DNA of 35,776 nt, from the IMG/VR virus record IMGVR_UViG_3300045988_122132. The stretch is one strand, 5' to 3'. This document shows, piece by piece, positions 2,912 to 11,118 of the stretch (position 1 is its first letter; the number at the start of each line of letters is the position of its first letter). Origin of the DNA: a virus. The notes under the pieces were generated by a model. That model saw only the letters and a program-made list of their open reading frames with translations, was not told where the DNA came from and searched no databases. Made by a program: the position numbers and the translations under genes.

Positions 2912-3847
2912 ATGACAAAAAAGCTTGCAAAAGTCCGCGAAAACAAGGGCAAGGCCGTGAATGCGCTGCCGGAGGATTATGTGGCGCTGGACTTGGAGAC
3001 AACAGGGCTTGACCCGGAATGGGATAGCATCATTGAGATAGGCATGGTGCGCGTCCGCCGCGGCGAGGTAGTGGCGGAGTATAGCACGCTTGTGAACCCG
3101 GGCATGCCGATAGATGATTTTATCGCCGAGCTGACGGGCATCACAAACGATATGCTTGCAGCCGCCCCGGCGCTGCCGGAGGTGCTTCCCGCCGCCCGTG
3201 AATTTCTGGGCGACGATATCATTTTAGGCCATAATATCAATTTTGATATCAATTTTATCTATGATAATTGCGAGTGCCAAGGCTTGAAGCCCGTAAGCAA
3301 TGGCTATATAGACACCATGCGCATATCGCGGCGAGTGCTGCCCGACTTGAAGCACCACAGGCTCGGGGACATTGTGAATGCGCTTGGCGTTGACCATGCG
3401 CAGGCTCACCGCGCCATAGGTGACTGCCATGCCACGATCGGCTGCTATAAGGCATTGCTGGCACATATAGACGCGGGCGCGGGACGAGAGGCGTACATCA
3501 CGGAGGTAAGCCGCCACGGCGCACAAAGGCCAGACTTGCACGCACTTACGGCAGACGGTACGGCGGTGGACGAGATGCACCCGCTGTATGGCAAGCATTG
3601 CGTATTTACTGGCACGCTTGCCAAAATGGTGCGCCTGGACGCGGCGCAGGCCGTGGTAAATGTCGGTGGGCTGTGCGACAACGGGGTTACCAAGGACACC
3701 AATTTTTTGATTTTGGGCGCGAGCGATTACAGCAAAATCAAGGACGGCAAAAGCAACAAGCTGAAACGGGCTGAAAGCCTGATCGCCAAAGGCGCAGACT
3801 TGCAGATAATATCGGAGAATGTATTTTACGATTTGATGAATTTATAA
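2912..3847 (+). CDS. DnaQ-like DEDDh 3'-5' exonuclease fused to a C-terminal BRCT domain
   Basis: Exo I is ALDLETTG, Exo II is GHNINFD and Exo III is HRAIGDCHAT. The C-terminal segment CVFTGTLAKMVRLDAAQAVVNVGGLCDNGVTKDTNFLILG resembles the ligase-type BRCT. Confidence 0.85.
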   Translation: MTKKLAKVRENKGKAVNALPEDYVALDLETTGLDPEWDSIIEIGMVRVRRGEVVAEYSTLVNPGMPIDDFIAELTGITNDMLAAAPALPEVLPAAREFLGDDIILGHNINFDINFIYDNCECQGLKPVSNGYIDTMRISRRVLPDLKHHRLGDIVNALGVDHAQAHRAIGDCHATIGCYKALLAHIDAGAGREAYITEVSRHGAQRPDLHALTADGTAVDEMHPLYGKHCVFTGTLAKMVRLDAAQAVVNVGGLCDNGVTKDTNFLILGASDYSKIKDGKSNKLKRAESLIAKGADLQIISENVFYDLMNL

Positions 3848-3954: not shown

Positions 3955-5097
3955 ATGGCAAAGCAAAAAGACGGAAGATACCGTGCAAAAATAACCGTAG
4001 GCACGGACGCGAACGGCAAAAGCATAGTCAAGTATGTATCAGGGCGGACGAAAAAGGAGCTTGAAGCGGCTAAGGCGGCGGCGCGTGAAAAGTACATCAC
4101 GGGGGCAAACGCCGTGCCGGAGGGGATACTTTTTGACCGATACGCGCTAAGCTGGTATGAGGTGTATAAGCAGCCGCATATAGGCGTGTCCGCGCAAATG
4201 TCATACCGCACGGCACTATATAAGCATATCTTCCCCGCGTTGGCGGGGCGAAGGCTGACGGCAATCACCACGGAGGACTTGCAGCGGCTGCTGAACACCA
4301 AGGCCGACACGTGCGCCGCCATAATAGGCAACATATCTACAATCCTGCGCGGGGTATTTCAGCGGGCGTATAGTCAGGGGCTTATCCCGCGTGACATCAC
4401 GGTCGGGCTTACAATCCCGTCCAAGCCCAAGGAGACGCGCAGGGCATTAACGGACGCGGAGACGGATGCGGTTCTGCGCCTGATGGATGAGGACGGCACG
4501 CTAATGCTTGCCCTGCTGTACTACACGGGTATGCGCTACGGCGAGGCTTGCGGCCTGCAATGGCGGCACGTTGACTTCAAAGCGGGGACAATCCGCATAG
4601 AGCAGCAGGCGGCGGGCAAGACGGGGGAGATAGATGCACCCAAAACGGATAAGTCCGTGCGGACGATACCCATGCCGCGCGAACTGGCGGACAAGCTGCG
4701 CCCCGTGCGCGGGCTGCCGCAGTCGTATGTAGTGCCGTCGTCCACAGGGTCATATCACCGCAATGCGACGCGATACCGCCTATGGGACGACTTAATGGCG
4801 CGGCTGTACGATATCGCGCCGGAGATTGACGCGATTGAAAAGGGCGGGCGGATGATATCGGTCATAACCCCGCATTACCTTCGGCATAATTATGCCAGCG
4901 TGCTGTATAACGCGGGCGTGGACGTGCTTTCCGCCCAAAGATATTTAGGCCACGCTAACGCAAAAATCACCCTCGAAATTTATTCACACCTTTCGGCACA
5001 GAAGGAAAAATACAGTGCAGAGCAGTTACAGGGCGCGTTTGAGAAAAGTTGCCGTAAAGTTGCCAGTCCCAAAGCGCACGGCAACGGCGGCAATTAA
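3955..5097 (+). CDS. int: Tyrosine recombinase (phage integrase) with N-terminal arm-binding domain
   Basis: The catalytic pattern is present: TGMRYGEACGLQW (R), HYLRHNYAS (HxxR) and LGHANAKITLEIYSH (H...Y). N-terminus DGRYRAKITVGTDANGKSIVKYVSGRTKKELE. The ATG at 3955 has better spacing from GGGGG than the ATG at 3949. Confidence 0.9.
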   Translation: MAKQKDGRYRAKITVGTDANGKSIVKYVSGRTKKELEAAKAAAREKYITGANAVPEGILFDRYALSWYEVYKQPHIGVSAQMSYRTALYKHIFPALAGRRLTAITTEDLQRLLNTKADTCAAIIGNISTILRGVFQRAYSQGLIPRDITVGLTIPSKPKETRRALTDAETDAVLRLMDEDGTLMLALLYYTGMRYGEACGLQWRHVDFKAGTIRIEQQAAGKTGEIDAPKTDKSVRTIPMPRELADKLRPVRGLPQSYVVPSSTGSYHRNATRYRLWDDLMARLYDIAPEIDAIEKGGRMISVITPHYLRHNYASVLYNAGVDVLSAQRYLGHANAKITLEIYSHLSAQKEKYSAEQLQGAFEKSCRKVASPKAHGNGGN

Positions 5098-5283
5098 AAA
5101 ATGCCTAATTTACTAAGAAAAAGCACCCATTTTTATGAGTGCTTTTCTTCTTTGGTATCCGGCAGCTACTTGGATTTTTTGCCCACCAAAGTACGCCATT
5201 GCGCCGAAAAACATAGATATTTAGGCATTTTCACAAACAGCCGTTAGCGCGAGCGCGCAATAAAAAGTTGCCGCAAAGTTGCC
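5044..5283. other. Candidate attP region (arm-type repeats flanking a core)
   Basis: A 21-nt direct repeat AAAAGTTGCCG(T/C)AAAGTTGCC occurs at 5044..5064 (inside the int 3' end) and at 5263..5283. Each copy is a tandem AAAGTTGCC dimer. An inverted repeat AAAATGCCTAA occurs at about 5099..5109 and 5219..5229. Confidence 0.45.
5118..5150 (+). terminator. Rho-independent terminator after int
   Basis: GCACCCAT-TTTT-ATGAGTGC is an 8-bp stem with one mismatch (5123..5142). It is followed by TTTTCTTCTTT and preceded by an A-run. Confidence 0.7.
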
Positions 5284-5302
5284 GGGGGTTGGTGTAAATA
5301 GG

Positions 5303-5611
5303 TTACGCCTTATACATCTCCTGATACCTTTTTACACGTTCCGTCTTGTCTATCTGCTTGCCGTGTAAATAGTTATACAGCGTCAGCATATCGGCGGGCG
5401 GGTCGCCATGCTTGGCCTTGTAGTCCGATATGGCGCGGACTACAAGGTCGTGCAGCATGGATGCGTGGGTCAGCTCCTGCCCCGATATGGTGTACAGGGT
5501 CTGCGCTACGGTCGGCATATCGTCCTTGACCGCAAGCGCCCACTTAGCATACTTTTCAGCGTCCGCGACTTCTTCACAAATCTGGTCGGACAAATCGTTA
5601 ATCAGTTTCAT
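5303..5611 (-). CDS. Cargo protein E: small all-helical protein, possibly ferritin-like (hypothetical)
   Basis: 102 aa containing EEVADAEKY and GQELTHASMLH, an E...ExxH-like pattern. Its start overlaps the upstream stop as ATGA. Confidence 0.6.
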   Translation of the reverse strand: MKLINDLSDQICEEVADAEKYAKWALAVKDDMPTVAQTLYTISGQELTHASMLHDLVVRAISDYKAKHGDPPADMLTLYNYLHGKQIDKTERVKRYQEMYKA

Positions 5612-6018
5612 TTCTTTGCTGCCTCCGCCACGGTGGCGACGGCTCCGCCAGTCAGACCCGTCAAGTCGTTATTCGGCGCACAAGGCGGGTTGCCGAACAG
5701 CTTAAAAGTCCCGCCCGTGGGGGTGGTGGATACCACGGTGCTGTATTTGGTGCGCTTGCGCATGCTGCACGCGGTGACTTGTGCGCAGCAACGGTTTATC
5801 AGGGGATACTGCGCCGTGCCTGTACCGATGGTGATATATACGGGCGCGGATATGGTGGTGGTATCGGGTATGCTCTGCGCCACGACGATGCAATACTTCC
5901 CACCGTTGGCGTACACGCCTGCGGGCAGATTGATAATAAGCCCAGTACCCGCCACAAATGTCACGGACTGGGATATAATCAGGTGGGGGCAAAGCTGGCA
6001 TATATTCTTACAAGCCAT
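5608..6018 (-). CDS. Cargo protein D: Cys-rich, probably beta-rich small protein (hypothetical)
   Basis: 136 aa with 8 Cys, including MACKNICQLCP and NRCCAQVTAC. The sequence is rich in T, V, I and G. RBS GAAAGGAGAAAATTATG. Confidence 0.6.
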   Translation of the reverse strand: MACKNICQLCPHLIISQSVTFVAGTGLIINLPAGVYANGGKYCIVVAQSIPDTTTISAPVYITIGTGTAQYPLINRCCAQVTACSMRKRTKYSTVVSTTPTGGTFKLFGNPPCAPNNDLTGLTGGAVATVAEAAKK

Positions 6019-6040
6019 AATTTTCTCCTTTCATAATTAA

Positions 6041-6060
6041 GGGGCGGTCTAAGCCGCCCC
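6041..6060 (-). terminator. GC hairpin between cargo genes C and D (possible attenuator)
   Basis: GGGGCGG-N6-CCGCCCC. On the minus strand it is followed by TTAATTAT and then the RBS of gene D. Confidence 0.35.
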
Positions 6061-6095
6061 GATAGTCACGGCAATGCCGGATAGTGTGTCATGTC

Positions 6096-6722
6096 TTAGC
6101 AGCAGCTATTGCCGCAGCCGCAGCCGGAGCCGCAAAACGGGCTATTCCCGGCGTTGTAAGTGTAGCCGTTGGGGTAGCGTACCACGCCCGTCAGCTGCTC
6201 GCGCACAAACAGCTGGTTATTAGCCTGCTCAAGCTGGGCTATGCGCTGCTCAAGCTGCGCCTTTTCGAGCGCCGCGAATTTTGCGTCGATGTTGGCGTTG
6301 ATGGCATCCATGCCACGCTGTACGGCGCAGCAGCACTCCGCCATCTGGGACTGTATGCCGTTCGCGGACTGCATCACGGTCATATTCGTGCCGTTCTGCG
6401 CGAGGGCCATTTCCTTCCCAAGCTGGCCGATATTGCCCTGCATATCGTAGCCAAGGCTGCATATGCCGTTGCCAATGTTGGTCAAGCGGTCATTAAGCTG
6501 GCCAAAATGCTGGCCGAAAAGGATTTCCTGCTGCGTCGCTGCGGTCGCGTACTGGCCGTAGTCACCGTTGCCACGGTTGCCCCAGCCGCCAAAGCCTCCG
6601 CCCATCATAGCCAAAAGCACGATAAGAGCGAATATCCAAAAACCTCCGCCCATGCTGCCGCCAAGGCCGTCGTTTTTGTCCGTTACGGCGGCGATATCCG
6701 CCAAAGAGGGTACATTATCCAT
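6096..6722 (-). CDS. Cargo protein C: membrane-anchored Q/N-rich protein with C-terminal Cys cluster (hypothetical)
   Basis: 208 aa. A Gly-flanked TM helix GGGFWIFALIVLLAMMGGGFGGWG is followed by AECCCAVQ and a heptad-like segment LEKAQLEQRIAQLEQANNQL. The C-terminus is FCGSGCGCGNSCC. RBS GAAGGAGAAAGACAATG. Confidence 0.65.
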   Translation of the reverse strand: MDNVPSLADIAAVTDKNDGLGGSMGGGFWIFALIVLLAMMGGGFGGWGNRGNGDYGQYATAATQQEILFGQHFGQLNDRLTNIGNGICSLGYDMQGNIGQLGKEMALAQNGTNMTVMQSANGIQSQMAECCCAVQRGMDAINANIDAKFAALEKAQLEQRIAQLEQANNQLFVREQLTGVVRYPNGYTYNAGNSPFCGSGCGCGNSCC

Positions 6723-6774
6723 TGTCTTTCTCCTTCATAATTTTATTTTTTTTGGTATATAAATCGCGCGTGAT

Positions 6775-6990
6775 TTATCGTATCTGGGACAAGATGCTTT
6801 CTGGGTCTATACCTTTTTGCTGGCACAGGCTGTAAAACATCTGCTGGGGGTCACGCCCGCCGAGCATCCGCATTACCTGCTGCATTTGCGCGGGCATCCC
6901 CATCATGCTTTTGGCCTGGGCGATTAGCTGCGGAGATATTTGCGGGGTCTGCTGGCTTCCAGCTTTCATTGCTTGCAATATGGGATTCAT
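6775..6990 (-). CDS. Cargo protein B: small Q/M-rich protein (hypothetical)
   Basis: 71 aa. RBS GGAGGA lies 8 nt before the ATG, and a TAA sits immediately upstream in the same frame. Confidence 0.55.
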   Translation of the reverse strand: MNPILQAMKAGSQQTPQISPQLIAQAKSMMGMPAQMQQVMRMLGGRDPQQMFYSLCQQKGIDPESILSQIR

Positions 6991-7285
6991 TTAATTTATC
7001 CTCCAATTTTGATATTCGTGCCGCGAGGTCGTTAATGTCCACAGGCGGCGCCGGCTGATACGGCGTGATGGTGTACGGGGTTAGTGTAGGATACCCCGCG
7101 CTGTCGGTACACTTGTGCCAGACTATGGGCGCGGTGGTGTCCAGCAGCAGGATGCTGCTATTGGGCGCAAGGCTGTACGCCTTCGCCCCGCCCTCGCCAT
7201 TGACTTGGGGGACTTGGGCGCGCACGGGCTGCTGATACTGTTGGGGCTGCTGATAGCCGCCAAAAAAGGGATTGGGATTCCACAC
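6851..7285 (-). CDS. Cargo protein A: protein with Q/P/Y-rich N-terminus (hypothetical)
   Basis: GTG start with RBS ATAAGGAGGCGATAAAAGTG. The N-terminus is MWNPNPFFGGYQQPQQYQQP, and a heptad-like INDLAARISKLEDKLN follows. The last 140 nt overlap gene B in another frame. Confidence 0.55.
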   Translation of the reverse strand: MWNPNPFFGGYQQPQQYQQPVRAQVPQVNGEGGAKAYSLAPNSSILLLDTTAPIVWHKCTDSAGYPTLTPYTITPYQPAPPVDINDLAARISKLEDKLNESHIASNESWKPADPANISAANRPGQKHDGDARANAAGNADARRA

Positions 7286-7326
7286 TTTTATCGCCTCCTT
7301 ATGGCCTTATTTTCTCAAAAAATTAG

Positions 7327-7347
7327 CCCCGCGCCCTGTGCGCGGGG
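7327..7347 (-). terminator. Intrinsic-terminator-like hairpin in the leader of the cargo operon
   Basis: CCCCGCGC-cctgt-GCGCGGGG is an 8-bp stem. On the minus strand it is followed by CTAATTTTTTGAG, only about 40 nt before the gene A start. Confidence 0.5.
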
Positions 7348-7409
7348 AGGGAATTTACCGGGCATTTAATGAGCAAAAATATTTTTTCAAAAAAAGTATG
7401 CAAAACCCC

Positions 7410-7438
7410 TTGACGTAGGTATATACCTATGGTATAAT
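7410..7438 (+). promoter_or_regulatory. Accessory promoter P1 with palindromic operator in the spacer
   Basis: TTGACG (7410..7415), 17-nt spacer, TATAAT (7433..7438). The spacer contains the perfect palindrome TAGGTATATACCTA (7416..7429). Confidence 0.7.
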
Positions 7439-7489
7439 AAGGCCATAAGATAAAGCAAGGGGCCAAAGCCCCAGAGGGAGTTAAAAATC

Positions 7490-7909
7490 ATGAAGTACGA
7501 TGTAACATTTTCCTGCGGACACACTGCAACGATAGAGCTGTTTGGCCCCGGCAAAGAGCGCGAGCGCAAAATCAGCTGGTATGAGACGCACGGCGAATGC
7601 CCCGAATGCTACAAGGCTCGCAAGCAGGCAGAGCGCGAGGCGATTGACGCACAGGCGGCGCAGGAAAGCAAGGAAAAACAGTGGCCCGAACTGAGCGGAA
7701 CCCCGAAGCAGGTCGCATGGGCAAACGCAATCCGCAAGGAAAAGATAGATGAAATAATGGCCGTTGGCGCCAACGAAAACGGAATGCGCTGCATCGCATG
7801 GATTATACAGACCTATACCACGGCAAAATTTTGGATAGATAATCGTGACAGGTCATTGCGCGGCGAGTGGGGCCGCGAGGTAATCAACACTTATAATGCA
7901 ACAAAATAA
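7490..7909 (+). CDS. Zn-ribbon protein, paralog 1 (hypothetical)
   Basis: 139 aa starting MKYDVTFSCGHTATIELFG...GECPECYK. The N-terminal motif is shared with the next gene. RBS GGGAG. Confidence 0.65.
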   Translation: MKYDVTFSCGHTATIELFGPGKERERKISWYETHGECPECYKARKQAEREAIDAQAAQESKEKQWPELSGTPKQVAWANAIRKEKIDEIMAVGANENGMRCIAWIIQTYTTAKFWIDNRDRSLRGEWGREVINTYNATK

Positions 7910-7928
7910 AAAAGAAAAGGAGAACGCC

Positions 7929-8585
7929 ATGAAATACGAAATGGAATATGCCTGTGGGCATACCACTACGGTGGATTGCACGATGGACGACCGCGACCAC
8001 ATGCGCGACTTGATAGGCCGCACATTCTGCCCCGATTGCTGGGGTAGGATGTGCGCAAGCGGAGATTTTGTACCGATGCGCATGAGTTGCGCAGAGCGCG
8101 ACGCTGATTACTGGTCATGCAGAGCCAAGCCCGATAGCTATGACAGCAAGACCGATACCATAGTAATCAATGTGCATAAGGACTTGCTGCGAGAAAAGGC
8201 CGAGATCGCCGCGTTAAAGGTATCAAGCGCGGCCATAGAGGGCATGAGCGAGGTGCGTGCGGCAAAAAACGCATGGGACGACTATAAGGCCGCAATCAGG
8301 CATTGGCAATTTATAGACCATTGTGGATGTGAAAAACCGGAAGAGCCCGCCGTGAAAATGGCAGAGATAGAATCTAAATATCCCCGGGCAGCTGCATTTT
8401 TTACTGCGGAAGAATTTACGCGGGGTGTCGATATAGATAAATGCGTCGCAGGGCGCAGGGCGATGGAAAAGATTTTGCGCAGCGAGGACTATGCCGAGGC
8501 TATCAGGGGCATGGAAGCAGAGTGGGAGCCCTGGCCATCGTACAGCAAGCTTGTGGAGTGGATGAAAAATGAAAAAAGAGTTTGA
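7929..8585 (+). CDS. Zn-ribbon protein, paralog 2 (hypothetical)
   Basis: 218 aa starting MKYEMEYACGHTTTVDCT...FCPDCWG. RBS AAAAGGAGAACGCCATG. The track ORF start at 7896 lies inside the previous gene. Confidence 0.65.
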   Translation: MKYEMEYACGHTTTVDCTMDDRDHMRDLIGRTFCPDCWGRMCASGDFVPMRMSCAERDADYWSCRAKPDSYDSKTDTIVINVHKDLLREKAEIAALKVSSAAIEGMSEVRAAKNAWDDYKAAIRHWQFIDHCGCEKPEEPAVKMAEIESKYPRAAAFFTAEEFTRGVDIDKCVAGRRAMEKILRSEDYAEAIRGMEAEWEPWPSYSKLVEWMKNEKRV

Positions 8586-8763
8586 GCGGCAAGCCCGCTA
8601 CGACAAAAAAAGCACCAAGGGCATATACCTTAAGCTTAACATCGGCACAGATGGCGACATCCTCGCCCGTCTTGCCGATGTGCCCAGCACGCAAGGATAT
8701 ATCAAGGGCCTGATACGCGCCGACATAAAAAATCAAAAAATCAGCAAAAACCCCTTGACGTAG
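8569..8763 (+). CDS. Small ribbon-helix-helix-like (Arc/CopG-type) protein
   Basis: 64 aa. KGIYLKLNIGTDGDILARLADVPSTQGYIKGLIRADI fits a strand-helix-helix pattern. Its stop codon TAG lies within TTGACGTAG of promoter P2. Confidence 0.5.
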   Translation: MKKEFERQARYDKKSTKGIYLKLNIGTDGDILARLADVPSTQGYIKGLIRADIKNQKISKNPLT

Positions 8764-8783
8764 GTATATACCTATGGTATAAT
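8755..8783 (+). promoter_or_regulatory. Accessory promoter P2, a duplicate of P1
   Basis: TTGACG (8755..8760), 17-nt spacer, TATAAT (8778..8783), with the same palindrome at 8761..8774. The 38-nt core 8747..8784 is identical to 7402..7439. Confidence 0.7.
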
Positions 8784-8829
8784 AGGTCATACGATAAAGC
8801 AAGGGCGGCAAGCCCGAAGGGAGTTAAAA

Positions 8830-9114
8830 ATGAAGGTTTACAAAGCGATTGAAGGCACTGAGACTTATGAGCAGTACGGCGAAGATTTTATCTCCATGTG
8901 GCGGGTGGCAGAAAAAGGGTTCCCCTGCAGCGAAGTCCGCGCGGCTACGGCAGATGAGCTTATAGCGGCTATAGACGACGATGCCGAATGGGAGCCGAAC
9001 CTCGTCGAGGCTCTGTGCTACGACCTGGGCATAGACTTTGACAGCTACGAGGATTGCGAATCCGCCTATGACGCGGCAGTAGCCAAGCACGCCGCCGAGA
9101 CGCTGAGCCGCTAA
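8830..9114 (+). CDS. Small strongly acidic protein (hypothetical; DNA-mimic or anti-defence candidate)
   Basis: 94 aa with 23 D/E against 7 K/R by hand count. It is the first gene after P2. Confidence 0.65.
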   Translation: MKVYKAIEGTETYEQYGEDFISMWRVAEKGFPCSEVRAATADELIAAIDDDAEWEPNLVEALCYDLGIDFDSYEDCESAYDAAVAKHAAETLSR

Positions 9115-9159
9115 GACGCAGAGGACAAGGGGCGGCGTTGCCGCCCTAAAGGAGAAAAA

Positions 9160-9522
9160 ATGGGAAGCACAACGCAAAAACCGGATATACCGCCAGTAGA
9201 TAGTACGGTAGCGGCTGTAGTGGATATGTGGGCGAGTGGGAGCAGCATGAAGGGAATTGTGCGCCAGCTCGGCTTAAGCTTGTCTAAAGTCCGGCGTATA
9301 CTGGTAGATAATGGCTTGGTGGACACAGATGAATCTTTGCTGTACGCAGACGGATACACACCTGCCGAGATTGCCCAGATGATGGGCAAGACGAAAAATG
9401 CAGTACAAGGCCGAATCCCATACGAAAAGGGCATGTATAACAGGGATAGCCCCACAACAAACGCCATGCGCATAAGGGCATGCAGGGTTCGCGCGGCTAA
9501 AAATACCGCCCCCCAAAAATAA
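9160..9522 (+). CDS. HTH DNA-binding protein (two HTH-like segments)
   Basis: The two segments are MKGIVRQLGLSLSKVRRILVDNGL and GYTPAEIAQMMGKTKNAVQGRI. It is the last gene of the P2 unit. RBS AAAGGAGAAAAAATG. Confidence 0.65.
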   Translation: MGSTTQKPDIPPVDSTVAAVVDMWASGSSMKGIVRQLGLSLSKVRRILVDNGLVDTDESLLYADGYTPAEIAQMMGKTKNAVQGRIPYEKGMYNRDSPTTNAMRIRACRVRAAKNTAPQK

Positions 9523-9526
9523 AAAA

Positions 9527-9542
9527 GCCCCCGTCAGGGGGC
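9527..9542. terminator. Bidirectional terminator where the accessory cluster and late operon converge
   Basis: GCCCCC-GTCA-GGGGGC, flanked by an A-run upstream and AT/T-rich sequence downstream. Confidence 0.65.
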
Positions 9543-9773
9543 ATATTTTATTATGGTTCTTTCCGCTGCCTTGTATCGGCGGCGAATTTGGTCATACTCT
9601 AACGGCGCATCGGTGTACCGCGCCTGATACTCCGCTGTCAAACGGTCATACGGCACGCCGTCAAGCAAATGCCGCGCCACAAGCCAGCGGTCGCGCTCAC
9701 AGAAAATCCGCTGATAGATTATCCCTTCCCACTCCGCGCGGGATAGGGTCTGCAAAATATTTTTGTCCACCAC
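9534..9773 (-). CDS. Small HTH-like protein (hypothetical), last gene of the late strand
   Basis: 79 aa. The track start is a GTG with no RBS. An ATG at 9790 with GGAGGTG 8 nt upstream is in another frame and stops after 23 codons (9719..9790). The true start is therefore ambiguous: either a leader peptide exists or there is a 1-nt indel. Confidence 0.45.
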   Translation of the reverse strand: MVDKNILQTLSRAEWEGIIYQRIFCERDRWLVARHLLDGVPYDRLTAEYQARYTDAPLEYDQIRRRYKAAERTIIKYAP

Positions 9774-9840
9774 ACAGGCCGGCTTCTCATCGGCCTATCA
9801 CCTCCGGCAATTTTTGTGTCGCAGAGGGGCGGCGGCAATT

Positions 9841-10119
9841 TTATTTCTTGTCGCGGGCTATCGCGTCATATGCGCCATTGGCGGCAAGGGACACCACCAC
9901 GGCATTTATCACGCACAGCGCCCCCGCCTCAAGGGTCAGGCCGCCCGTGAAAAAGGTCGCGGCTATAAGCACCACAAGCGCGATTACATAGCTGGTCAGG
10001 CGCGTGGGTATTTTGTCGATAAAGCCCACGCCCTTGATAAGCTGGGTTACAAGGCTGGTTGCAAGGGTCGCCCCCGCATAGGTCAAAAGCACCGCCCAAG
10101 TGAAAAATTCGTTCGTCAT
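9841..10119 (-). CDS. Holin (about three predicted TM helices)
   Basis: 92 aa with hydrophobic segments FFTWAVLLTYAGATLATSLV, YVIALVVLIAATFFTGGL and GALCVINAVVVSLAA, plus a charged C-terminus. It lies next to the endolysin. Confidence 0.75.
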   Translation of the reverse strand: MTNEFFTWAVLLTYAGATLATSLVTQLIKGVGFIDKIPTRLTSYVIALVVLIAATFFTGGLTLEAGALCVINAVVVSLAANGAYDAIARDKK

Positions 10120-10122
10120 TTT

Positions 10123-10437
10123 TTATCTCCTTTCGATTATGTGTTGCAAAAGTTCTGCACGGGCGTTTTTCAGCCCGTCAATCCCGTTACCGTCTATCTC
10201 GTGATTTATCAGGGCCACAAGGCCGGTTATAATAGCTTGGTTTGTGACTTCCTGTTGCGCAAATTTTGTGTTGATATCCTCAAACCGCTTCAAATCGTTT
10301 GAATCATGCTCAAGCACTTTATCAAGCTTCTCCCGCATAGATAATGCGGGGGCTATGATTTCCCTTACCGCCTTTATGCCCTGCGCGATAAGCACGATAG
10401 CCCCCAGTATTGATGCACACCATCCCCACCATTCCAC
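10123..10437 (-). CDS. Lysis-cassette membrane protein (N-terminal TM plus coiled coil)
   Basis: 104 aa starting MEWWGWCASILGAIVLIAQGI, located between the endolysin and holin. Confidence 0.55.
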   Translation of the reverse strand: MEWWGWCASILGAIVLIAQGIKAVREIIAPALSMREKLDKVLEHDSNDLKRFEDINTKFAQQEVTNQAIITGLVALINHEIDGNGIDGLKNARAELLQHIIERR

Positions 10438-10440
10438 GGG

Positions 10441-11118
10441 CTACACCTCCGTATGCGCTGTTGCAAAGGCCTTTACAGCCGTCATTGTGGCCTTGCCACA
10501 GATTCCATCGGCCTTGCCGCAATCGTAGCCACAGGCGTTCAATGCGGCCTGCATAAGCTTCACGTTTTCGCCGCGCATCATGGGCGAGGTCAATCTAAAG
10601 ACGGTTGGGGCGGTATCCTCGGCCAGCGCGGGGTGTCTGCCCTGGTGCGTCCAGCCGCCGAGGCACAAGTGAAGATTTACCACGCCGTAATCGCGGCCTT
10701 TAGCCTCTATCACCATGCCGTTGCCGACGTATACGCCTACATGTCCCATTTTGCCCTTGGCGAAGCTGTACCTAAATACCAAATCCCCCGGCTGCATCTG
10801 CCATGCGCCCAGCTTGCCCTGCTGCTTGCACTGCCTGTATAAGCCTTGGGCACTTGTGTCGCCGTCAATCAGCCCCTTGATATCGCGAAGCCAATGAACG
10901 ATAAGGCCGCTGCAATCAAAGGCGTACAGCGGCGTTTTGGTGGCTTTTTTGATGTATGCAAGGGCGCGGTCGGTCTCGCGGCGTGAGGTTTCCTTGCGCC
11001 GTACCCATTTTTCGAGGTCGGCGCGGTTGTCTACCCTTTCGCCCTGCGCGCCCCAGACGTAAGCGTCGCCGATGTGGCCTTCAAGGTAAGCCAAAAATTC
11101 CTTCACCTTTTCGCCCAT
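10441..11118 (-). CDS. Endolysin: NlpC/P60 endopeptidase with C-terminal peptidoglycan-binding domain
   Basis: Catalytic Cys context AFDCSGLIVHW and His context GHVGVYVGNG. The C-terminal VKLMQAALNACGYDCGKADGICGKATMTAVKAF resembles PG_binding_1. Confidence 0.85.
   Translation of the reverse strand: MGEKVKEFLAYLEGHIGDAYVWGAQGERVDNRADLEKWVRRKETSRRETDRALAYIKKATKTPLYAFDCSGLIVHWLRDIKGLIDGDTSAQGLYRQCKQQGKLGAWQMQPGDLVFRYSFAKGKMGHVGVYVGNGMVIEAKGRDYGVVNLHLCLGGWTHQGRHPALAEDTAPTVFRLTSPMMRGENVKLMQAALNACGYDCGKADGICGKATMTAVKAFATAHTEV

Follow-up and report, generated by a model that had tools for sequence, protein, structure and literature searches.

Four of the five small genes that lie between positions 5303 and 7285 of the IMG/VR virus record IMGVR_UViG_3300045988_122132 (35,776 nucleotides, referred to here as the window) are the local copy of a widespread accessory cassette, which is carried in fixed order by temperate tailed phages of gut Clostridia. 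The four genes are designated A, B, C and D, and a fifth, E, follows D. No characterised system has this gene set, any of its core domains or the RNA element found between C and D, and on these grounds the cassette is rated as a new kind of phage accessory system. The fixed order, a regulator gene, the intergenic RNA element and a highly conserved Cys-rich subunit indicate a coherent system and not random phage dark matter. The cassette features of the window, in the direction of transcription, are as follows.

6851–7285, minus strand: gene A, GTG start, 144 amino acids (aa), PHROG 21718
6992–7285, minus strand: the part of gene A under selection, as judged from pN/pS
6775–6990, minus strand: gene B, 71 aa
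6096–6722, minus strand: gene C, 208 aa, PHROG 16490
6024–6081, minus strand: twin-hairpin RNA element, with hairpin 1 at 6066–6081 (TC-CGGC-att-GCCG-TGA) and hairpin 2 at 6041–6060, followed by the Shine-Dalgarno sequence of D
5608–6018, minus strand: gene D, 136 aa
5303–5611, minus strand: gene E, 102 aa

A preliminary description of this DNA had treated the five genes as an orphan operon. This is not borne out: counted at 90% identity, D has 2,212 and C 3,397 homologue clusters, all of them without a name, and the order from A to D is fixed. A scan with a D profile across the GTDB species representatives returned 120 genomes with D. The 80 best of these 120 species genomes, together with six metagenomic contigs and the window, form the set of 87 loci in which genes were counted with iterative hidden Markov models (HMMs) seeded with the window proteins and with two distant loci. 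Gene order is constant in the 80 species-representative Clostridia genomes : holin/endolysin and a small helix-turn-helix (HTH) gene are followed by A to D in turn and then by a fifth gene that varies. Of the 87 loci, 79 have A, 72 have B and 83 have C; the small HTH gene stands upstream of A in 70, and a DUF7841 gene occupies the fifth slot in 51. Cassette genes that are absent are missing mostly from loci at contig ends. In 87/87 loci the cassette points the same way as the late genes; it always lies downstream of the holin/endolysin genes, and the identical five-slot order after holin and endolysin is found in metagenomic phage genomes and gut phage contigs. The preliminary description had made its proposal depend on the genes being conserved as a set in other neighbourhoods, which is what is seen for A–D. 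Its five-gene unit is not supported: A–D form the conserved set, E is swappable, and the core also includes the upstream small HTH gene.

The hosts are Clostridia, with at least 120 species-level genomes from Oscillospiraceae, Lachnospiraceae and Christensenellales. Cultured hosts include Anaerotruncus colihominis DSM 17241, Flintibacter muris DSM 110149, Acutalibacter, Muriventricola, Agathobaculum desmolans and Blautia. A few metagenome-assembled genomes are labelled as other phyla; these are mostly short, phage-sized contigs (one, labelled Alistipes, measures 112 kb), and the labels are probably binning errors. Near-identical D proteins occur on hundreds of contigs. A search for cultured phages with the cassette turned up only uncultured metagenomic phage genomes, and a search of the literature on DUF7841, the PHROG identifiers and Cys-rich prophage proteins found nothing relevant.

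All five reading frames in the window are real genes under purifying selection. The ratio of nonsynonymous to synonymous polymorphism (pN/pS), computed against close relatives from IMG/VR, is 0.07 for the core of A, 0.07 for each of B, C and D, and 0.10 for E. Family HMMs built without the window proteins recover A with E = 2e-14, B with 1e-10 and C with 1e-23. Each gene is preceded by a Shine-Dalgarno sequence, GGAGG or AGGAG, 6–9 nucleotides (nt) upstream, and an ATGA overlap joins D and E, so that the arrangement set out in the preliminary description, five co-directional minus-strand reading frames with strong Shine-Dalgarno sequences and one such overlap, is confirmed position by position. 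The compositional features that it had quoted are all present as well: a Q/P/Y-rich N-terminus in A; 14 Q and 9 M among the 71 residues of B; nine Cys in C, including a CCC triplet and the terminal FCGSGCGCGNSCC; and eight Cys in D. The annotated end of A needs revision. The last 46 codons (6851–6991) overlap the start of B by 140 nt in another frame, and in this overlap pN/pS is about 10 in the frame of A and 0.04 in that of B, the substitutions being synonymous for B and replacements for A. From this pattern it follows that functional A stops at about residue 98, the remaining tail being unselected read-on; in distant relatives A stops just before B.

The position of the cassette within the phage genome was established with an integrated copy, L120, which resides in a 270-kb bacterial contig. 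There, host McrBC and AddAB genes follow E in the place of the integrase gene, int, whereas in phage-sized contigs int comes after E. Similarity between the integrated copy and the window stops near window position 5115. The presence of host genes after E, together with this end of similarity, places the phage attachment site attP between E and int and makes the cassette the last element before attR. The two features concerned are these.

5098–5302: attP region, crossover near 5115, beside the end of int, from the comparison with integrated L120
3862–5097, plus strand: tyrosine integrase, convergent with the cassette; relatives of the gene carry PF00589

The placement next to attP that had been claimed for the genes is thus confirmed by host genes directly after E, and the cargo-like location at the attP/attR end is supported both by the integrated copy and by the type-strain genome of A. 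colihominis, in which a GH25 endolysin gene and the cassette are followed by host ruvCAB; the prophage of DSM 17241 is at 1.670–1.687 Mb of NZ_CP102255. In other cassettes a transposase or a Rep3 replicon comes next. Near the crossover, at about 5155–5170 of the window, stands the 15-nt sequence GTAGCTGCCGGATAC, of which an inverted copy is found in the host flank of L120 (about 8600–8620); it may be an integrase-binding or core-type site. A gene for a DnaQ-like 3'-5' exonuclease with a BRCT domain (2912–3847, plus strand) directly precedes the integrase gene in the same direction, and the pair is also found in L121 and L122.

The cassette is dispensable for the phage. Among 26 close relatives, defined by an endolysin 86–94% identical to that of the window, those with enough downstream sequence mostly have A–E. 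In L099 the whole cassette is missing, yet the HTH gene is retained. In L100, a deletion has joined the ten N-terminal residues of A (MWNPNPFFGG) to C at a point past the membrane segment of C. L097 and L116 have A–D swapped for an unrelated pair, with E kept; the pair encodes a protein of 145 aa, with a Gly-rich hydrophobic segment and a coiled coil, and another of 113 aa. The 145-aa protein was considered as a diverged C and rejected, there being no HMM or hhalign signal. The sole similar record in the phage collection, MT835524, has the lysis-to-cassette segment in common with the window but only 15% of the remaining genome. This pattern of sharing, together with the variants among the close relatives, shows the lysis-to-cassette segment to be a mosaic, dispensable module.

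D is the most conserved of the cassette proteins, with 60–75% identity across host orders; the A, B and C proteins of the same cassettes are about 20–25% identical. It is always a stand-alone protein of 120–140 aa and never fused to a shaft. Its sequence begins with CxxxCxxC and has eight Cys that are invariant or nearly so. The structural model of D is an eight-strand beta-sandwich, with a predicted local distance difference test score (pLDDT) of 65 and a predicted template modelling score (pTM) of 0.61. Residues 1–10, which hold the invariant C3, C7 and C10, have a pLDDT below 50, and the C-terminus is also disordered. A Foldseek comparison of the model with the PDB gave 114 matches at E <= 10 and none at E <= 0.001, the top, non-significant match being a phage baseplate/fibre entry. 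Against BFVD, family members and uncharacterised phage proteins, some of them long, are followed by C-terminal knobs of fibre or collagen-like proteins with E = 1e-4 to 1e-2.

The N-terminus of C is short and acidic. A single Gly-flanked hydrophobic segment lies some 30 residues into the protein, ahead of a helical, Q/N-rich body that contains the CCC triplet and of a C-terminal Cys cluster. CCC is found in 78 of 82 C members, and 2–5 Cys lie within the last 16 residues in 82/82. Lys and Arg residues around the hydrophobic segment number 33 on the N-terminal flank versus 75 on the C-terminal flank; from this charge bias we favour an N-out/C-in topology with the bulk of C predicted to be cytoplasmic. 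Neither a signal peptide nor a hydrophobic segment was found in A, B, D or E, and all cassette proteins are predicted to be cytoplasmic, the single membrane segment of C aside. The view that the genes encode surface or envelope proteins, as first proposed, is weakened by both observations.

In A, the low-complexity N-terminus rich in Q, P and Y is accompanied by a conserved domain of some 50 aa, of which two subtypes exist, and by a short amphipathic helix. The B family comprises Q/M-rich helical proteins of about 75 aa (71 aa in the window copy). In loci with the subtype of A present in the window, an extra gene of 125–130 aa abuts A upstream (L012, L019, L021, L027, L028, L033, L037, L038, L042, L046, L051, L062, L070 and L081). 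Its product has the conserved motifs GDC..RA and GHVV..DG..YD.WDSG, a Cys/His/Asp pattern that by eye is like that of small papain-fold enzymes; no Pfam or PDB match was obtained for it, and the window is without this gene.

The proteins of the cassette have names at best, without a mechanism. A scores 1e-11 to PHROG 21718 and C 1.2e-15 to PHROG 16490; the A-like and C-like proteins of L001 match the same PHROGs at 3.5e-5 and 7.4e-31. Both PHROGs, like DUF7841 of the usual fifth gene, are annotated as being of unknown function. No match for A–D was found in Pfam, NCBIfam, PADLOC or PDB sequences, whether single proteins or family profiles were used, and scans of A–E and of their counterparts in L001 and L004 against Pfam, NCBIfam, PHROGs and PADLOC returned PHROGs of unknown function and sub-threshold noise alone. 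A PDB sequence search with single C, D and E and with family profiles of D, C, A and DUF7841 gave nothing significant. In PADLOC-DB the cassette proteins have weak partial matches only (C to the coiled-coil tail of ZorA, 4e-4; D to AbiEi, 1e-3), and A–E match no holin, spanin or endolysin family. The earlier statement that no virion, lysis, toxin or defence family can be recognised here therefore agrees with the profile scans, and as far as any profile can tell the cassette is non-enzymatic.

The spacer between C and D harbours a structured RNA element. Among 69 distinct C–D spacers, 58 fold far better than shuffled sequences (median z = -3.4). A small hairpin comes first and is followed by TGA; an A/U-rich stretch then leads to a GC-rich hairpin, behind which stands the Shine-Dalgarno sequence of D. 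The TGA behind hairpin 1 is invariant in 45/45 aligned spacers, the stem of this hairpin alternates, with compensatory changes, between CCCG/CGGG, CGGC/GCCG and GCCT/AGGC, and hairpin 2 has nine pairs with compensatory changes in 9/9. Both hairpins follow a UC-stem-loop-stem-U-GA design that occurs at 6.7 per kb of spacer versus 0.10 per kb elsewhere, a difference of about 65-fold. Rfam gave no match at E <= 1 in window positions 5000–10500. The idea that the invariant TGA terminates an extension of C made by frameshifting or by read-through of the selenocysteine type was rejected: relative to the C stop the TGA is in frame 1, 0 and 2 in 16, 8 and 4 loci, respectively, and the stop codon of C itself is TAA in the window and in other loci, so the TGA is not a reading-frame stop. 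The element may govern how the A-B-C and D-E messages compare in amount or stability, or how efficiently D is translated. In L012, L018, L020, L026, L030, L035 and L038 an additional gene of about 75–80 aa lies between the second hairpin and D.

The fifth slot is variable. E, which fills it in the window in place of a DUF7841 protein, belongs to a family of only eight homologue clusters. It sits after D in more distant phages too, and it stays beside the unrelated two-gene set of L097 and L116. E is not a diverged DUF7841 protein: this was rejected on an hhalign probability of 0.1% against the DUF7841 alignment and on the absence of a Pfam DUF7841 match. We regard E as an uncommon substitute for DUF7841, a swappable accessory outside the cassette core. 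The ferritin-like pattern attributed to E is present as a half-motif, E13/E14 plus E46-x-x-H49. This single E...ExxH pair is kept in 6/6 aligned homologues, and some sources name close relatives of E 'ferritin'. Its score to Pfam PF02915 (Rubrerythrin), 16.3 bits with E = 0.013, falls below the cutoff of 22.8, and its best PDB sequence match is the ferritin BfrB (E = 0.42), with alignment to ferritin helices A–B. E resembles ferritin and rubrerythrin in being helical and in this single pair, and it differs in having half the usual size and no second ExxH, so that it lacks the two pairs that make up a diiron site in a four-helix bundle; dimerisation might supply the missing half.

Upstream of A, the window contains the following features.

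7327–7347, minus strand: GC hairpin and T run, about 25 nt upstream of the Shine-Dalgarno sequence of A
7410–7438 and 8755–8783: strong promoter-like site in two copies, TTGACG-17-TATAAT with TG
7490–9522, plus strand: variable block, an opposite-strand insertion (2.2 kb) between the HTH gene and A, outside the cassette
9527–9542: bidirectional terminator-like hairpin, GCCCCCTGACGGGGGC then a T run on both strands, just past the HTH gene
9534–9773, minus strand: small HTH gene, 79 aa, sigma-70-region-4-like; recovered by the window-free family HMM with E = 2.3e-14; pN/pS 0.09
9841–11118: lysis genes, separate from A–E

The HTH gene comes directly after XhlA-like and holin-like genes and an NlpC/P60 endolysin gene, and because it stands directly behind the holin-like genes it belongs to the late/lysis unit. 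Its window protein has no Pfam match; family members match weakly (DUF1492, 0.009; HTH_23, 0.04; SigV, 0.07), and the family consensus shows a region-4-like pattern. A terminator-like hairpin separates the HTH gene from A in 26/71 distinct loci, the window among them, and extended -10 box motifs occur upstream of A in 18/71; in L001, L004 and L011 the loop of the upstream hairpin contains such a box (TGgTAyAAT). Repeats of any kind are found upstream of A in 38/73 loci, versus a shuffle mean of 15, and about ten loci show a run of three or four direct repeats, spaced at exactly 11 nt, whose sequence differs from locus to locus. These repeats fit a locus-specific DNA-binding activator, which falls short of proof, and could be binding sites for the adjacent HTH protein. 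Promoter motifs upstream of A gave no consistent signal for the timing of expression; the visible promoters look sigma-A-like, unlike those of sigma-E or sigma-K. In close relatives the inserted block measures 1.0–3.3 kb and differs in gene content. The products of the window block include small proteins rich in Cys (139 and 229 aa) and an HTH_23 protein of 120 aa, and in L120 and L122 an AcrIC5-like gene, of an anti-CRISPR family, occupies the slot of the block.

The reading that we favour, tentatively and as a possibility well short of a probable answer, is that the cassette produces a late-made, membrane-tethered, Cys-bridged assembly of C and D, activated by the HTH protein, assisted by A and B, and acting at or after lysis. 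The HTH protein would be produced alongside holin and endolysin, from the last genes of the late operon, and would turn on the cassette promoter. C would be anchored in the membrane by its N-terminal segment, with the helical body and the C-terminal Cys cluster in the cytoplasm. D, a predicted beta-sandwich with a free, Cys-rich N-terminal arm, would dock on C or on itself through Cys-metal bridges or, after lysis, disulfide bridges. A and B would serve as small cofactors or chaperones, and the twin-hairpin element would fix the ratio of C to D. The assembly would act at or after lysis, for example on membrane debris or vesicles, or in exclusion or protection, and would stand outside the virion and the lysis machinery. 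Several observations weigh against this proposal. The model of D is of moderate quality (pLDDT 65), its likeness to fibre knobs is weak (template modelling (TM) score about 0.45–0.5) and has no PDB counterpart, and the AlphaFold model of C is unusable (pLDDT 44, pTM 0.16). The charge bias behind the topology of C is modest. The HTH gene survives loss of the cassette in L099, so it may have another job. The terminator-like hairpin that about a third of the loci have between the HTH gene and A, and the promoter with an extended -10 box that some have there, constitute a classic moron layout, which would fit expression in lysogeny equally well, and Cys clusters in a reducing cytoplasm could instead reflect Fe-S or Zn chemistry.

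The main rival is that the cassette is a moron, expressed in lysogeny from its own promoter in the prophage and providing a membrane-associated superinfection exclusion or anti-phage function, which corresponds to the 'exclusion device' of the preliminary description. This is a possible explanation, albeit a doubtful one. The prophage end beside attR is the usual place for conversion genes, and the cassette shares with the morons found at the lysin-attP junction of temperate Firmicutes phages this location, its dispensability, the alternative gene sets that swap into the slot and, in some loci, promoter-like (extended -10 box) and upstream terminator-like sites of its own. C is a membrane protein, and the AcrIC5-like gene among the neighbouring variable genes points to a counter-defence neighbourhood. 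The cassette differs from such morons in that one specific set of four genes keeps its order in 80 or more host species, is preceded by a dedicated HTH gene and always runs in the direction of the late genes. That co-direction, seen in all 87 loci, speaks against separate lysogenic expression, and in many of them the cassette abuts the upstream gene with no room for a promoter. PADLOC gives nothing beyond coiled-coil noise, the identity of D across host orders and its pN/pS of 0.07 are unlike fast-evolving exclusion or defence genes, and four non-enzymatic proteins would be an unusual design for defence. An unlikely alternative is a virion-associated or lysis-released fibre-like complex, with C as coiled-coil shaft, D as knob and A and B as chaperones, that would decorate the virion or form a bacteriocin-like or decoy particle. 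The best fold matches of D outside its family are knobs of tail fibres and collagen-like phage proteins, the top PDB match, though non-significant, is a baseplate/fibre entry, the cassette lies at the end of the late operon, and the absence of signal peptides means that release would need lysis. The fold matches are weak, however, and D differs from those knobs in standing alone; fibres do not have a hydrophobic segment of the membrane type, as C does; the cassette is missing in close relatives with the same lysis genes; and tail-fibre candidates are already present upstream in the phage.

It is improbable that the cassette encodes spore-coat, exosporium or appendage-like proteins, which a sporulating lysogen would assemble in its mother-cell cytoplasm and cross-link via Cys, Gln and Tyr residues. 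The composition is suitable (a Q/P/Y-rich A, Cys-rich C and D, and DUF7841 proteins with R/D/Y-rich N-termini) and the hosts are Clostridia. Like Ena and ExsY/CotY proteins, those of the cassette are small, rich in Cys and, as is the case for coat proteins, devoid of signal peptides; the beta-sandwich of D with its free Cys-rich N-terminal arm recalls the Ena subunits, whose type of flexible N-terminal connector with conserved Cys is present in the D model as a resemblance only. However, neither sequence nor fold searches gave a match to Ena, BclA or CotY-type proteins. D has no Pfam match at E <= 1, and thus none to the DUF3992 jellyroll of Ena, and no Ena entry figures among the 50 PDB matches that Foldseek listed; for C and D there is no Pfam or NCBIfam match of the ExsY/CotY/CotZ kind; and C, at 208 aa, has no NCBIfam match to the YjcZ-type proteins of about 30–50 aa, with which it shares only a Gly-flanked hydrophobic segment. 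The likeness to spore appendages and to tiny Gly/Cys-rich membrane proteins that had been suggested for these genes is therefore not supported by any link to Ena, ExsY/CotY or YjcZ. Moreover, the cassette is always in prophages and encoded downstream of lysis genes, C is membrane-anchored, and the visible promoters are sigma-A-like and not sigma-E/sigma-K-like. Some of the host lineages, namely Christensenellales, Butyricicoccus and Agathobaculum, are generally described as non-sporulating. Very little probability is likewise given to an intracellular metal or redox module in which C and D would use their Cys clusters to bind Fe-S or Zn, the metal being supplied or handled by E or DUF7841. It would account for the CxxxCxxC start and eight invariant Cys of D, for the CCC and CGCGC-type tail of C, for the predicted cytoplasmic location of all proteins in strictly anaerobic hosts, and for the E...ExxH pattern and 'ferritin' label of E. 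Yet E offers half a diiron site, is rare (eight clusters) and is unrelated to DUF7841, no Fe-S, rubredoxin or superoxide reductase (SOR) family match was obtained, and the module assigns no role to A, B or the coiled-coil body of C.

A bolder version of the favoured late C-D assembly, which we regard as a long shot, is that the cassette encodes a new self-assembling, cross-linkable phage structure, with C as membrane-anchored scaffold and the highly conserved, Cys-rich D as beta-sandwich subunit. Under HTH activation it would be built late in the cytoplasm with low-complexity Q/P/Y-rich and R/D/Y-rich partners, freed by lysis and hardened by oxidation, and it would coat or occlude virions or membrane debris. 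If this were true, the hardened structure would be functionally like spore coats or baculovirus occlusion bodies, shielding phages of strict anaerobes between hosts.

Human and animal guts commonly harbour the cassette, and its four core proteins are all without a characterised relative. Cultured lysogens, among them A. colihominis DSM 17241, F. muris DSM 110149 and Acutalibacter sp. 1XD8-33, make the question of its role directly testable. Solving it would assign a role to thousands of gut-phage proteins now listed as 'hypothetical' and could bring to light a novel means by which temperate phages that infect anaerobes change the host cell or protect themselves.

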